Source: an uncultured Anaerolineales bacterium (GTDB lineage Bacteria; Chloroflexota; Anaerolineae; Anaerolineales; UBA4823). From it: a DNA stretch of 64,000 bases. A program made the position numbers and the translations under genes. The notes under the pieces are model-generated. The model was given only the letters and a program-made list of their open reading frames with translations. It had not been told where the DNA came from and did not search any database. Positions 1-37,842 of this stretch are shown in pieces; the stretch's first letter is position 1; every line of letters starts with the position of its first letter. The stretch lies in contig CALFWB010000066.1 in assembly GCA_937928795.1 (NCBI GenBank), positions 38 to 64,037 on the forward strand, in the 5' to 3' direction.

Positions 1-17
1 AACTTTTGAGTGCACAC
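1..17. repeat. Terminal 17 bp of MITE family A (rest lies outside the window)
   Basis: AACTTTTGAGTGCACAC is identical to the end of the 78-bp copy at 37765-37842 and is the reverse complement of the start of the copy at 20886. Confidence 0.75.
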
Positions 18-103
18 GCTTGAAGTGACACGTTGCTCGCTTCACTCGAAAGCGGAGCTTGCTGTTCCGAAAAGAGCCTCACATTAAATTTTTGAAAAGC
101 CCT
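18..103. mobile_element. End of a miniature element inserted into intI
   Basis: Ends in TTTTTGAAAAGCCCT, the same terminus as the element ending at 45971. IntI homology (…GLRLRV) stops exactly here. Confidence 0.55.
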
Positions 104-549
104 ACCCGCAGGCGCAGGCCTTCCATCAAGCGCAGACCGGAACCATAGAGCCAGGTGTGCTTTCAGCCGATAAATTCCAGAAAGATGGGCGAAAACTTGC
201 TGAACCTCCCATTTGGTCAAGACGGTGGGCAGGCGCTTGGGGTTTTTGGCACGCAGAGCCTGCAGTGGAATGGAGATGTCTTGGTGCAGAACTTCTCGAT
301 AGAGAAACAAGAGCGCACTGTAAGCCTGGTTTTGGCCGGATGCGGATACCTTTTCGTTCACCGCCAGATGGGTAAGAAAGGCTTCGATTTCAACGGCACC
401 CATCTCAGCGGGATGACGCTTCTTGTGGAAGAGGATATACCGCTTAATCCAATCCACGTAGGTCTGCTCTGTGCGATAGGAGTAGTGTTTGAGACGGAGA
501 GTCTCACGAACCTGATCAAGCAGTTTTGGGGTTGGGTGTGGATTGACAA
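103..549 (-). pseudogene. intI: Integron integrase (tyrosine recombinase), N-terminal part; frameshifted and truncated
   Basis: Manual minus-strand translation gives KLLDQVRETLRLKHYSYRTEQTYVDWIKRYILFHKKRHPAEMGAVEIEAFLTHLAVNEKVSASGQNQAYSALLFLYREVL…RAKNPKRLPTVLT, a typical IntI N-terminus. After a frameshift near 150 it reads LYGSGLRLMEGLRLRV and then ends abruptly. The likely TTG start (549, GAGGTG RBS) is also out of frame. Confidence 0.92.
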
Positions 550-565
550 AGAGAACACCTCTGAA

Positions 566-596
566 TTGCTTGAAAAAATTAGGAGGATGCTATAAT
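566..596 (+). promoter_or_regulatory. Candidate cassette promoter (Pc-like), extended -10
   Basis: TGCTATAAT at 588-596 points into the cassette array, with TTGCTT/TTGAAA upstream. Confidence 0.55.
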
Positions 597-628
597 GGTA
601 TTAGCAAAAAAGTATATGATGGAATTCA

Positions 629-657
629 ATTAAACGAAGGTTTTCCGTAAACGTCAA
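629..657 (-). promoter_or_regulatory. Candidate intI promoter
   Basis: Minus strand reads TTGACG-17 nt-TTTAAT, pointing to the intI start. Confidence 0.55.
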
Positions 658-739
658 CAATTAAGGGATTAGGTGGATTCCGTATAAGAAGGAGATAAAT
701 CGTTGCTAGAGTTGGTTTCCGTCTAATTAATAGTTAGGC
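641..739 (+). mobile_element. attI-like integron recombination site
   Basis: GTTRRRY core GTTAGGC at 733-739 lies just before the first cassette gene, preceded by CCGTCTAATTAATA. Three TTCCGT direct repeats (643, 678, 717) could be accessory integrase sites. Confidence 0.7.
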
Positions 740-771
740 GGGCTATGATCTTGGAGACAAAGTAGGAAGGG

Positions 772-1800
772 ATGACTTACAAGTGCGTTGTCATTACCGA
801 GTTTGGTGGGCCAGAAGTCCTCAAGATGGTCGAGGAGACTGAATTACCAGAGCCAAAACCCGGCGAGGTACGAGTCAAGGTGTTGGTCACGAGTGCAGCC
901 TTCACTGACGTGATGATTCGCAAAGGAAAGTATCCCGACGTGAAGGATAAGCCGCCTTTCTCCCCGGGCTATGATATGGTCGGCGTGGTAGACAAGTTGG
1001 GTGAAGGCAGAAGCCGTTTTGAGGTGGGGCAGCGAGTAGCAGACCTCACAGTCATTGGTGCATATTCGGAATACCTCTGTATACCGGAAATCCGTTTAAC
1101 GCATATGCCCGAGAGTCTCGACTTAGCGGAAGCAGTCAGCCTCGTACTTTCGTATGTCACTGCATATCAAATGCTCCATCGGGTGGCAAAAGTGAAGCAA
1201 GGTCAGCGCATCTTGATACATGGTGCAGGAGGGGCTGTTGGCACAGCAGTGCTGCAATTAGGTTAGCTATTGGATTTGGAAATATACGGCACGGCTTCCA
1301 AGTCCAAACATGACTTGCTCAAACGACTGGGCGCAACGCCCATTGATTACAAAGGTGAAGATTTCGTGGAGCGCATCCGTAGCCTAACAGGTGATGGTGT
1401 TGACGCAGTTTTTGACCCAATAGGAGGTGAGAATTTCAAGCGGTCATTTCGTGCATTGCGGCGCGGTGGGAAACTGGTGGCGTATGGCTTCTACAATGCA
1501 GTACAGGGAAGGGGTGGCAGCATCCCGTTGGATTTCGTGCGGCTTCAGCTATGGCACTTCTTGCCGAATGGACGGTCAACAGCGTTCTACTCGATTGGTG
1601 CATTGCGGCAGAAAAAACCCGATTGGTTTTCAGAGGACTTGACCAAGTTGTTTGATTTGTTAACACAGAACAAAATCAAGCCCATCATTGCGGCGCGTAT
1701 GCCACTGGCGGAGGCCAAGCGTGCCCATGAACTTATCGAACAAGCAGAGGTACAGGGCAAGATTGTGCTAACTGTTGCCGAAACGACCGTCCAAAAGTAG
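772..1800 (+). pseudogene. Medium-chain dehydrogenase/reductase (quinone oxidoreductase/VAT-1-like) with an internal stop
   Basis: ORFs 772-1266 and 1270-1800 are in the same frame, split by a TAG at 1264-1266. Motifs FGGPEVL, PGYDMVGVV, IHGAGGAVG, GKIVL. Confidence 0.85.
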
Positions 1801-2008
1801 GCGGGCGAACACCTGTCCCACATTTGTTACTGCACAAGGAGTTGGCCCATGACCAAGTCACAATCTCGTCCGGCGATGAGCCGCTGTGACTTTCTTAAAG
1901 TCGCCGACCGTGGCAGCAACGGCTGTCACATGTCCCGGTTTGGGGTATCTCGCCACCCGCGCACCGAGTGTAGATACCCCTGAGTTTGCTTTTGGAGAGG
2001 AGGCAAAC

Positions 2009-2500
2009 GTGAATAGGCGAATTCTCATTACCTATGCCACTCGCGCTGGGTCTACCGCCGAGGTGGCTGCTGCCATAGGCGAAACCCTCAGCGCCCGTGG
2101 CTACGTCGTGGATGTCAAACCGGTCAAGCAGAAGCCTGATCTCACCGGCTATGCCGCCATCGTAATGGGCAGCGCCATCCGCATGGGCAATTGGTTGCCC
2201 GAGGCTGTGGATTTTGTCAAGCGCAACCAGTCCGCACTGAATCAGGTGCCTGTTGCGCTCTTTACTGTACACATGCTCAACATCGGTGATGATGAGACCA
2301 GTCGGACTGCCCGTCTGGCCTACTTGAACGCCGTACGCCCATTGTTGAATAACGCAGAAGAAGTCTACTTTGAGGGCAAGATGGACTTCTCGCGCCTGTC
2401 CTTTCTTGACCGGATGATTGCCCGCATGGTCGGTGCGGTAGAGGCCGACCGCCGAGATTGGGACAGAATCCGCGGCTGGGTTCCGGCAGCACTGGGTTAA
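2009..2500 (+). CDS. Flavodoxin-domain protein (HemG/Flavodoxin_5-like); upstream Tat-leader extension from 1849 is frameshifted
   Basis: ILITYATRAGSTAEVA, IVMGSAIRMGNW, DRRDWDRIRGW. GGAGG RBS before GTG 2009. Confidence 0.8.
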   Translation: MNRRILITYATRAGSTAEVAAAIGETLSARGYVVDVKPVKQKPDLTGYAAIVMGSAIRMGNWLPEAVDFVKRNQSALNQVPVALFTVHMLNIGDDETSRTARLAYLNAVRPLLNNAEEVYFEGKMDFSRLSFLDRMIARMVGAVEADRRDWDRIRGWVPAALG

Positions 2501-2510
2501 GGGAGGATAG

Positions 2511-3371
2511 ATGCACACAAGTCCAGCGCTCAAATGGCTTATCCCCTTGATTTTCATTCTGATGCTGATCGCCGCTCTGTCTGGTCTGTGGCCCGCCGAG
2601 GGGACACCCTACCCGCTCACGACCTTTCGCGGCGAGGAAGTGACGATCAACGCGCGTGGTTTGTATTATCGGGATACGGTTAGTTCGGCGGCTCAAATGC
2701 AGGCTAACGACTTGGTCATGCTGGTGCTCGGCCTGCCGCTGTTGGCGATTTCCTTCTGGCTGACGCAGCGCGGCTCGCTGCGTGGGCAACTATTGCTGGC
2801 AGGCACGCTGGGCTTCATACTCTATACCTACATCACGATGTGTTTCGGCGCAGCCTACAACCAGTTGTTCCTGGTCTATGTAGCGTTGTTCAGCCTAAGC
2901 CTGTTCGCCTTCCTGCTGGTAATGATGTCTTTTGATGTCCCCTCTCTGCCGGCGCGTTTTTCCGGCAGACTACCGCGGGGCTGGATTGCCGTATTGCTCT
3001 TTTTCGCGGCTGGGTTCTTGCTCCTGGCTTGGCTGGGGCGCATCGCCGCGACTTTCACTCCAGGTGCAGTTCCTGCGCTGGAGAACACTACCAGTATGTT
3101 CATCCAGGCCATGGATCTAGGCATCATCGTTCCCGTCTGCGTGCTTTCGGGTATCCTGCTGCTACGCCGAAGCCTTTGGGGTTACCTGCTGGCCTCGGTG
3201 GGGATGATGAAATTCCTGACATTGGGCATCGCCGTCAGCGTGATGGGGTTGAACATGGCGCGAGTCGGAGTGCCGGTCAGTGCGGAAGAGTTGGTAATCT
3301 TCCCTACCATCGCCATCACCAATATCTTGATGACCGTGGTGCTGCTCAAGAACATCACTTCAGCAGAGTAG
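2511..3371 (+). CDS. Polytopic membrane protein of unknown function
   Basis: 286 aa with about 8 hydrophobic segments. GGAGG RBS 10 nt after the flavodoxin stop. Confidence 0.8.
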   Translation: MHTSPALKWLIPLIFILMLIAALSGLWPAEGTPYPLTTFRGEEVTINARGLYYRDTVSSAAQMQANDLVMLVLGLPLLAISFWLTQRGSLRGQLLLAGTLGFILYTYITMCFGAAYNQLFLVYVALFSLSLFAFLLVMMSFDVPSLPARFSGRLPRGWIAVLLFFAAGFLLLAWLGRIAATFTPGAVPALENTTSMFIQAMDLGIIVPVCVLSGILLLRRSLWGYLLASVGMMKFLTLGIAVSVMGLNMARVGVPVSAEELVIFPTIAITNILMTVVLLKNITSAE

Positions 3372-3411
3372 AAGGGGCGATTCACACCAACTGTTGAGTT
3401 GCAGCGGAAGC

Positions 3412-3488
3412 GCCCGCCTAACAATCGCTTCCACCTGACGCCGCTCCGCTGCGCTTGGTCGCTGCGGCTAAGCTCGGTGCCGTTAGCT
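3412..3488 (+). mobile_element. attC site 1
   Basis: Inverse core GCCTAAC (3416-3422) and core GTTAGCT (3482-3488) flank a GC-rich imperfect palindrome. GCCCGCCTAAC is the exact reverse complement of GTTAGGCGGGC at 733-743. Confidence 0.85.
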
Positions 3489-3521
3489 GGCACTTGCGCA
3501 ATAAACTAAAAGGAAACCACA

Positions 3522-4323
3522 ATGACACAATTTCCTCGATTGAGTAACCGTGAATGGGATGTTCTAAAACTATTGTTGCAGGGCAAAGGCAATAAACAAA
3601 TTGCTTTATCTCTTGATATTTCTGTCCGCACGGTTGAGTTCCATTTTGAAAAATATTTATGCCAAGTTTCAGGCAAGTTCCAGAATAGAGTTGATTTTGA
3701 AACTAGGGAGCGCCACAGGTGAGTTTGAAATTGAAAAACTAGGGCGTTCCACAGTTGCGAATATAGGGGAAAATGTCGAAAATAGAGACAGGCTCAATTT
3801 ACGGAAGAGTTGGGCAGGATCTTTCATCGGCAAGGAGATAGACATGAAAAACATACTGACTTCAAAGCATGTTCTGGTAGGAGTAATGACGACGCTCTTC
3901 ACAGGCGCAATGTGGGTTTCTGCGCTCCTATATTCGCAATTGTTGTTCCCAAGTGAAATCAAGGCATGGGTTGCGCCCCTGATTATCGTTTGGGTCATTA
4001 TCGGTCTAACAATTGGGCTTGTTGGAAATCGCTATGGTGCTACGCTACAACGAGTGTTTTTCAGCACCTTACTTGGCGCAGGCTTGAGTCCGTTTACGAT
4101 TATTCCGCTTATGATGTTCGTTGTCTTACCCATCGGAAAACTGGCTGAATGGCTTGGAATGATTGACCCAGCAACAATGCCCAATGATGTTGCTACCAAC
4201 TTAACAATGATTGCAATGATAACAATATGGCTTTTCGTTGGAATATTTATCGGGATTATCTTGTTGTTCTTGACCATAAAAAAGCCTGAACAAGCAAAAG
4301 TTCAAGCGCAGTTTTCGGGATAA
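3522..4323 (+). pseudogene. LuxR-type HTH fused to a 4-TM membrane domain; +1 frameshift at ~3645; the membrane domain has its own start at 3844
   Basis: LSNREWDVLKLLLQGKGNKQIALSLDISVRTVEFH continues as LKNIYAKFQASSRIELIL in the next frame (CATTTTGAAA has one extra T). AAGGAGATAGAC-ATG at 3844. Confidence 0.8.
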
Positions 4324-4353
4324 AGTTTGTAAGGCAGAGTTACTTGTAACCTA

Positions 4354-4483
4354 AAGTGCCAGCCAACACCGCTTGCTAAGAACCAACTCATCTGGTTCAC
4401 CCGCTGGGGAGGCTGGCGCGCCTGTCAGGGAGTGTTGCACCTGATGCCGCTTTGCGGCGCGGCAGAGCGGCCAGCCGTTAGCG
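4354..4483 (+). mobile_element. attC site 2 (degenerate)
   Basis: AAGTGCCAGCCAAC (4354-4367) is complementary at 13/14 positions to GTTAGCTGGCACTT at the cassette start (3482). Core GTTAGCG at 4477-4483. Internal GCCGC-TTT-GCGGC hairpin. Confidence 0.75.
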
Positions 4484-4610
4484 GTTTAGAGGTATAAAGT
4501 CAGAGGTAGGCTTGCTGCTATCGAGGGAGAAAAGACCATGAAAATCATCTATGGCAGAGCTCGCCTACGAGTCGTCAGACCGCTGGGCGAATAAGCTACT
4601 TTCCCATCAA

Positions 4611-4696
4611 TGGGGCGGGTGGGAGTCGAACCCACAAGGAGTGTCACCTCCGGAGGATTTTAAGTCCCCTGCGTCTGCCAGTTCCGCCACCGCCCC
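4611..4696 (-). tRNA. tRNA-Leu(TAA)
   Basis: Minus strand GGGGCGGTGGCGGAACTGGCAGACGCAGGGGACTTAAAATCCTCC…GTGGGTTCGACTCCCACCCGCCCCA. Long variable arm, TAA anticodon, CCA not encoded. Confidence 0.96.
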
Positions 4697-20885: not shown

Positions 20886-20963
20886 GTGTGCACTCAAAAG
20901 TTGTTGGCAACATTGCTTTGTAGGACAACTCATTGAGTTGTCCTACAACTTTTGCGTGGACAC
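20886..20963. mobile_element. MITE family A, 78 bp
   Basis: Terminal inverted repeats GTGTGCACTCAAAAGTTGT / ACAACTTTTGCGTGGACAC and internal palindrome TGTAGGACAACTCA-T-TGAGTTGTCCTACA. Near-identical inverted copy at 37765. Confidence 0.85.
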
Positions 20964-37764: not shown

Positions 37765-37842
37765 GTATCCACGCAAAAGTTGTAGGACAACTCATTGAGT
37801 TGTCCTTCAAAGCAATGTTGCCAACAACTTTTGAGTGCACAC
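37765..37842. mobile_element. MITE family A, 78 bp, inverted relative to the copy at 20886
   Basis: Matches the reverse complement of 20886-20963 with about three substitutions. Confidence 0.85.

Follow-up and report, generated by a model that had tools for sequence, protein, structure and literature searches.

Remains of a probable decayed chromosomal integron at the end of a contig from an Anaerolineales bacterium

We analyzed a 64,000-nucleotide stretch of DNA from an uncultured Anaerolineales bacterium (the window), which comprises bases 38-64037 of contig C66 in a 3.29-Mb, 93% complete metagenome-assembled genome (MAG) of 128 contigs. At the left end of the window we found the remnant of an integron integrase gene (intI), an attI recombination site and co-oriented gene cassettes ending in attC sites (Table 1). 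We read this locus as the remains of a sedentary chromosomal integron that has decayed, and put the probability of this reading at about 0.88. The canonical integron layout claimed in an initial annotation of the DNA was supported, although the element is inactive. Since no other intI was found in the assembly, the cell itself can no longer move cassettes. With its cassette boundaries exactly placed, the locus documents a case of integron decay in Anaerolineales, of a kind that annotation pipelines seeking the C-terminal domain of IntI will miss.

Table 1. Features at the left end of the window (positions are those of the window)
Feature	Position	Strand	Details
End of multicopy modular repeat resembling a miniature inverted-repeat transposable element (MITE)	1-104	.	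Truncates intI; contig C66 terminates within it, 37 bases to the left of the window
intI pseudogene	103-558	minus	N-terminal 151 of ~326 codons (46%); two frameshifts; cut at 103/104
TATAAT box, candidate Pc-like -10	593-598	plus	Found by eye; T, A, T and A columns invariant in 5 aligned sequences
TTGACG-17-TTTAAT, candidate PintI	630-658	minus	Consensus match by eye only
attI recombination core AATAGTTAGGCGGGC	729-743	plus	GTTAGGC at 733-739; putative crossover between G733 and T734
Cassette 1, 2749 bp	734-3482	plus	11/11 start complementarity to flank of its own attC
NAD(P)H:quinone oxidoreductase-like gene (MDR/PIG3 family)	772-1800	plus	In-frame TAG at 1264-1266
Flavodoxin-domain gene (HemG-like)	1849-2500	plus	PF12724, E=1.8e-26; open frame from GTG 1886
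286-aa multi-pass membrane protein gene	2511-3371	plus	No named family
attC1, 73 bp	3416-3488	plus	R'' GCCTAAC 3416-3422; R' GTTAGCT 3482-3488
Cassette 2, 995 bp	3483-4477	plus	13/14 start complementarity to 4354-4367
LuxR-type helix-turn-helix fused to four-helix membrane domain	3522-4323	plus	Split by extra T in run 3644-3647
attC2, 123 bp, divergent or degenerate	4361-4483	plus	R'' AGCCAAC 4361-4367; R' GTTAGCG 4477-4483
tRNA-Leu(taa)	4611-4696	minus	Right-hand limit of the variable region; congener synteny starts here

Integrase remnant, recombination sites and cassette boundaries

The IntI N terminus that had been proposed on the minus strand at 103-549 was borne out. The TIGR02249 model of integron integrases matched the remnant with 150.9 bits (E=5e-44), over model positions 1-124 of 315 only, and Pfam identified only the N-terminal SAM-like domain (PF13495, E=2.7e-32). 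The models of XerA, XerD and XerC gave 32.4, 23.6 and 19.4 bits, respectively. The N-terminal domain is thus of the IntI type, not of the XerC/D or phage type that would have refuted the initial annotation. In the closest full-length IntI (P0005, 326 aa, 499.5 bits on TIGR02249, where the cut-off is 265 bits), residues 7-135 aligned to 535..152 with 109 of 129 identical (84%), and residues 136-151 aligned to 150..103 in another frame, with no alignment beyond. A +1 frameshift falls near 151-153, and the truncation lies just past the region of the first catalytic arginine. The best full-length relatives were 77-84% identical to the remnant and scored 490-500 bits, above the cut-off. Proteins of this sort are named integron integrase in their source records, some of them from MAGs of Anaerolineae, Ardenticatenia or Chloroflexota.

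The initial annotation had expected the C-terminal half, with the IntI-specific patch, beyond position 1 of the window, where tblastn was to find it. Instead, a repeat truncates the gene at 103/104, and the contig ends within that repeat. No catalytic half of IntI was found anywhere in the assembly, either with a hidden Markov model (HMM; best other matches, 35.5 and 25.9 bits) or by tblastn with the C-terminal 175 residues of the closest relative (best match, 37% identity over 46 aa). Neither the locus nor the assembly encodes an integrase with the RHRY catalytic residues and the IntI patch of a complete integron.

The remnant has no in-frame start codon in this genome. We compared the locus with Logan contigs from four metagenomic runs of one study (X1-X4), of which X1 is the probable source of the MAG. 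Contigs from runs X2 and X4 contain an extra G after 527, which links the GTG at 558 to the IntI frame. This population has therefore lost one base in the G run at 528-531 that is present in sister populations.

On insertion at attI, a cassette takes the distal part of its own R' box along as its 5' end, and its first bases should therefore pair with the R'' side of the attC at its 3' end. This signature of circular permutation was found for both cassettes. The sequence at 733-743 is the exact reverse complement of 3412-3422 (11/11), and the 11-mer that starts cassette 1 occurs four times in the genome, two of the occurrences being the two expected sites. The 14 bases from G3482 match the reverse complement of 4354-4367 at 13 positions, and this 14-mer, with up to one mismatch, was found at only two places genome-wide, both of them expected. 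For a third cassette, no partner R'' was found for the bases after 4477; the corresponding 14-mer (up to one mismatch) matched only itself genome-wide. The array therefore ends there, at 4483. Since each cassette starts with the bases that complete the R' of its own attC, recombination between attC and attI sites must have assembled the array. Judged from the sequence, this signature is the strongest evidence that 4361-4483 would be the attC of cassette 2 and 733 the true attI junction. All cassette open reading frames (ORFs) are co-oriented and point away from intI, as had been noted initially.

The GTTAGGC motif occurs 239 times in the genome and is weak evidence by itself. The attI-like core that the initial annotation had recognized at 733 was nevertheless upheld, being located in an ATAGTTRG block common to the window and two congeners, G004 (locus L033, ~3160) and G006 (locus L034, ~2170). 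In an alignment of intI-attI spacers from the window, G004, G006, the related genome G005 and a second copy on contig C114 of this genome, the block lies 145-185 nt from the intI start. In the window, position 733 is 175 nt from the GTG at 558, which places a putative GTT crossover near the start of intI. The two congeners also have the TATAAT box, which the alignment shows as conserved next to the start of intI. At its place G004 reads TTGACT-17-TATAAA; the window box has poor -35 spacing (15 or 19) and was skipped by a consensus scan. At the place of the candidate PintI, the C114 paralogue reads CTGACG-17-TATCAT.

Two covariance models were used to evaluate the attC sites. Model R1 was built from 8 sites outside the window, three on contig C87 of this genome and five in G004 and G005; model R2 was built from 30 sites outside the window, including sites of 130-145 nt from other families. 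The R1 consensus has the textbook fold of attC, in which an unpaired spacer separates the R helix (CTAAC/GTTRG) from an L helix that contains a single unpaired column, and the tip is variable. R1 matched attC1 at 3413-3491 on the plus strand with 38.9 bits (E=1.4e-7 in the window and 7.2e-6 genome-wide), and R2 matched it with 31.8 bits (E=6.8e-6). The site has the R''/R' palindrome, the spacer and the extrahelical base of an attC. With both models, attC2 was the second-best match in the window, on the right strand, and its R'' differs from RYYYAAC by one mismatch. Folding energy was dropped as a test for attC because attC1 equaled its shuffles, and the covariance models took its place. A finder combining regular expressions with folding was noisy and was retained only for picking seed sites.

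Across the 30 R2 sites, 91.6% of cells were paired, as opposed to 76.8% after shuffling and 26-41% with the partners slid, and 13 of 21 pairs exhibited compensatory changes; these statistics come from an alignment fitted to the model, which favors pairing. The AAC...GTT boxes of the family are invariant. In relatives, the family forms co-oriented arrays beside full-length intI, and all 19 matches in five cassette-side loci (L033, L034, L035, L042 and L044) were on the cassette strand. The resulting clade-specific covariance model is a by-product of this work, and at least 10 attC sites of the same family were found on 8 contigs of this genome. Three of these genomic sites lie without an integrase at a contig end (C87:10031-12080), where the cassette ORFs, judged by eye without a family search, look toxin-antitoxin-like and resemble, besides a transposase fragment, a PIN-domain toxin pair and a MazF-like toxin accompanied by a small antitoxin.

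In runs X1-X4, the summed contig depth in the bin that contains attC1 (3361-3520) was 480-1640x, compared with ~6-26 around it, and diverse sequences led into attC1 at 3414-3420 in all four runs. Therefore, the same type of attC ends many different cassettes in the source community. No depth spike was detected at attC2 in the metagenomes.

By the known mechanism of integrons, the leftward-encoded IntI, a tyrosine recombinase, would have recombined the folded bottom strand of attC with the attI core (G/TT at 733/734) and so inserted circular cassettes there, and a promoter in the intI-attI spacer would have read into the array. Two insertion events left their mark at the locus. Subsequently, intI lost its catalytic half at the junction with the MITE-like repeat and acquired two frameshifts, so that the cassettes may at most still be transcribed from the surviving promoter-like boxes. 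The cargo appears to be decaying in this population too, through the stop codon in the oxidoreductase gene and the frameshifts in the LuxR-membrane gene and in the signal peptide of the flavodoxin gene.

Host, relatives and known integrons

Most of the window is filled with housekeeping genes, including those of glycerol-3-phosphate dehydrogenase, malic enzyme, glucan phosphorylase, CydDC and PBP1A. All six malic-enzyme homologues that bear an organism name belong to Anaerolineales, and because of this the host is assigned, on sequence similarity, to that order. DNA to the right of the locus displays 71-75% identity to five genomes of the same genus. In four of these, the match begins at 4606-4611, where tRNA-Leu has its 3' end; that of the fifth (G001) is divided between two contig ends, on one of which it likewise begins there. 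The locus is chromosomal, since the window holds housekeeping genes and shares synteny with the genus from tRNA-Leu onward. These results support the earlier claim of a chromosomal integron in an Anaerolineae-like host.

All DNA to the left of tRNA-Leu is particular to this genome at this position. The DNA that congeners have beyond tRNA-Leu found no match anywhere in this genome, and model R1 found no attC beside tRNA-Leu in the congeners (loci L036-L041). The 127 bases between attC2 and tRNA-Leu (4484-4610) have no congener counterpart, and their sole ORF spans 18 codons (4538-4594).

Among 60 relatives, 27 encoded an IntI match with E<=1e-30, and 19 had a match above the cut-off. G004 and G006 possess full-length intI genes (481.9 and 437.5 bits), to which the remnant is 68% and 71% identical at the nucleotide level. 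In addition to the attI core and TATAAT box that both share with the window, G004 has the same attC consensus as this genome. However, the intI genes of G004 and G006 are on a contig other than that of the tRNA-Leu block, whereas the locus in the window lies next to tRNA-Leu. In G005, intI is also a remnant. It is not cut by the same repeat, and the terminal motif of the repeat was not found in loci L033-L035; therefore, it decayed independently.

The locus resembles the sedentary chromosomal integrons of Vibrio, Xanthomonas and environmental bacteria in its leftward intI, its attI with a GTT crossover, its co-oriented cassettes with attC sites of one family, its chromosomal location and its non-resistance cargo. 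It differs from them in having an integrase without the catalytic half, only two (perhaps three) attached cassettes and an Anaerolineales host.

As an integron, the locus is ordinary. Nemergut et al. (2008; PMC2426708) reported that nearly one third of the identified intI genes are pseudogenes and listed Chloroflexi among the phyla with integrons; decay is, by that account, a common fate. As in the pseudo-integrons described there, intI in the window was inactivated by frameshift and truncation. Unlike them, the truncation occurred at a MITE-like repeat, and the second platform fragment in this genome (C114) is also bounded by repeats. Cury et al. (2016; PMC4889954) likewise reported that Chloroflexi encode integrons. 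They defined the CALIN (cluster of attC sites lacking an integron integrase) and recorded intI pseudogenes near 15 of 279 CALINs. Like a CALIN, the locus has attC sites without a detectable IntI, the C-terminal domain being absent. The pseudogenes near CALINs were, by their description, found via that domain, whereas our locus retains only the N-terminal domain, with attI in place. IntegronFinder calls a CALIN when at least two attC sites lie within 4 kb and neither PF00589 nor the C-terminal intI profile reveals an IntI; here the catalytic domain is absent and one attC is secure, and the second hinges on the weak site at 4361-4483. In the categories of that program, the locus would be a CALIN with a neighboring intI pseudogene rather than a complete integron.

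The statement in the initial annotation that integrons of this group are poorly described was overstated, as Chloroflexi intI genes have been reported since 2008 (PMC2426708, PMC4889954) and many proteins from Anaerolineae MAGs are named integron integrase. A 2025 paper (PMC12772301) describes an Anaerolineae MAG carrying sul4. A full-text literature search turned up no paper specifically on the integrons of Anaerolineales, which does not exclude that one exists.

Composition of cassette 1 and competing explanations

The junction between the oxidoreductase and flavodoxin genes contains a near-copy of the start motif at 733 that lacks one T. This sequence, GTAGGCGGGCG at 1797-1807, overlaps the stop codon of the oxidoreductase gene. 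There is no second copy of this 11-mer in the genome; its 9-base core is present 35 times, and about 6e-4 chance occurrences of such a motif are expected in short intergenic gaps. The near-copy may be the relic of a cassette boundary that has lost its attC. The flavodoxin gene adjoins the membrane protein gene in four out of five relatives' loci examined, and the amino acid identities across the five loci are 62-67% and 74-86%, respectively. A different, conserved gene precedes the pair in three relatives, whose homology to the window begins only near 1840. No attC was found within 1.5 kb of the relatives' pairs in the loci examined (best E=0.28), and the oxidoreductase gene was not beside the pair in any of them. 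Given the near-copy of the start motif and the contexts of the pair in relatives, we read cassette 1 as two units: probably, it is a fusion of qor (734-1797) with the flavodoxin-membrane unit (1798-3482), the internal attC having been lost.

In this genome, the pair lacks the neighbor gene of the congeners, starts with the cassette-start motif and ends in a canonical attC. We entertain, as an outside chance, that 1798-3482 is a two-gene module native to this bacterial family and is seen here shortly after its conversion into an integron cassette. If so, a comparison of its two forms would reveal where and how an attC joined native genes, which is the unsolved step in the genesis of cassettes. 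Among close relatives, the gene pair thus exists in a cassette form and as ordinary genes of the chromosome, which could bear on the origin of cassettes. Together with the attC covariance model, this by-product may prove more useful than the locus itself.

The same facts invite an explanation in which only the right part of the array is cassette DNA. The segment 734-3415 would then consist of ordinary chromosomal genes caught between an attI-like motif and a single attC, in a rearranged remnant. The adjacency of the pair in relatives without a nearby attC, the conserved gene that precedes it in three of them and the three genes of cassette 1 all fit this scenario. Still, we deem it improbable. 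To rebuild one attC, an excised circle of this segment would need just the 11/11 complementarity that 733-743 and 3412-3422 show, the near-copy at 1797-1807 marks the exact point where homology to the relatives' pairs stops, and the attI motif is conserved with congeners.

Several observations weigh against a decayed integron as we describe it. The unusual size of cassette 1 (2.75 kb, three genes) and the ordinary, attC-free contexts of the flavodoxin-membrane pair in the relatives' loci examined are two of them. Of the two attC sites in the initial annotation, only the one given as 3412-3488 is fully confirmed, at 3416-3488. The other, given as 4354-4483, stands in part: its matches were not significant (R1, 4420-4485, 13.6 bits, E=0.34; R2, 4358-4486, 13.6 bits, E=0.36), and what speaks for it is the 13/14 complementarity and the fold of its right half on the bottom strand (4395-4490, z=-3.2). 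Moreover, attC1 folds no better than its shuffles (z=+0.34 for the bottom strand and -0.01 for the top). The divergent promoters of the initial annotation did not rise above chance, as a scan of the intI-attI spacer (540-770) with the sigma-70 consensus returned no site and the boxes found by eye face each other. Both the indel at 527 and that at 3644 fall within homopolymers and were seen only in X1, so that they could be sequencing errors of that data set.

The completeness of the assembly bears on the integrase itself. In a 93% complete MAG of 128 contigs, where the contig in question ends in a repeat, an unbinned contig could carry the C-terminal piece of intI. The integron might then be complete in the cell, with a MITE of ~300 bp inserted in intI and the catalytic half just past the contig end, lost by assembly or binning; the full copy of the repeat is indeed only 297 bp long. 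We regard this as unlikely given that neither the HMM nor tblastn found a C-terminal half in the assembly. Even so, intI would be interrupted by the repeat and frameshifted near 152, as it is in X1, X2 and X4.

Finally, the locus might contain no integron at all: an integrase fragment of the XerC/D-like or phage kind might lie next to GC-rich palindromic repeats that have nothing to do with it. The part of the protein with the IntI patch is missing, and the genome is full of short palindromic repeats. We give this explanation almost no credence. The IntI model scored 151 bits versus at most 32 for Xer, and proteins above the IntI cut-off share 84% identity with the fragment. The putative attC sites belong to a family with invariant AAC...GTT boxes, compensatory pairs and arrays next to full-length intI, and a tRNA was the only match in an Rfam scan. 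A decayed sedentary integron, of a kind already well known, remains the reading we prefer.

Cargo genes, population variants and repeats

Three of the four cargo genes have a stop codon or a frameshift in this genome. The oxidoreductase matched TIGR02824 with 206 bits (E=5.5e-61), under the cut-off of 297, and contains the Pfam domains ADH_N and ADH_zinc_N. The Tat-like signal of the flavodoxin protein is damaged in comparison with three relatives: it reads SRC where the twin arginine of SRR would stand, and a gap of 5 nt throws the gene out of frame near 1900. The 286-aa membrane protein had no match in Pfam or NCBIfam, and 19 of the 60 relatives searched encode homologues (E<=1e-10), the closest nine of which are 60-86% identical. 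In the LuxR gene, the GerE match (E=2.4e-14) ends at model position 39 of 57, and the helix resumes in the next frame. When the cassette proteins were compared by tblastn with 139 loci, no close relative of the LuxR-membrane protein was found, and the oxidoreductases were only ~30% identical.

In the metagenomes, position 1264 reads A (AAG, Lys) in X2, X4 and one contig of X3, and the extra T at 3644-3647 is missing from X2 and X3. Going by the AAG and the shorter T run in these other runs, the lesions at 1264 and 3644 would either be variants that this population carries or stem from base and homopolymer errors in its data set. The frameshift near 152 is unchanged in the listed contigs of X1, X2 and X4; those listed for X3 stop short of it. 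The depth of X1 contigs (12.6 at 75-3455 and 26.2 from 3533) was considered as a sign that cassette 1 is absent from some of the population, and no conclusion was drawn, there being one figure per contig.

At 100% identity, window 1-104 recurs in full at C29:61664-61767 and C7:20922-21025 and over its first 95 bases in two more contigs; these copies lie at the ends of the four contigs. In total, 36 matches to window 1-104 were found in the genome. Of the 71 occurrences of the terminal motif GGGCTTTTCAAAA, 32 have TA beside them. One complete copy, 297 bp long with inverted ends, was found (C73:9735-10031). The modules of the repeat gave 336 high-scoring segment pairs on 83 contigs, most of them from a central hairpin module. 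The junction between the repeat and the intI remnant was reproduced in all four runs: each has a contig that leads from the repeat into the remnant (three begin at 75) or stops at the edge of the repeat at 104.

The genome contains a second intI-attI spacer fragment of 120 nt, 87% identical to window 555-672 (C114:143-265). This paralogue is flanked by the repeat on both sides, and neither intI nor attI remains. The attI side of a second platform copy of the C114 type was present as a joint in metagenome contigs and was not found in this assembly.

The genome is strewn with short modular repeats, comprising an 80-nt hairpin module in ~120 copies and the terminal modules with inverted GGGCTTTTCAAAA ends. 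Modular repeats are also present at 20886-20963 and 37765-37842 of the window, and several contig ends are broken at such repeats. One contig of run X3 joins the last 28 bases of the repeat straight to window 4044 (~4044-4047), inside the membrane domain encoded by cassette 2, which suggests a polymorphic and hence recently mobile insertion of the repeat. Dense tandem and modular repeats occupy C122:1-600 of this genome, upstream of a gene for a small CDGSH-type iron-sulfur protein; a CDGSH-type gene adjoins the flavodoxin-membrane pair in two congeners.

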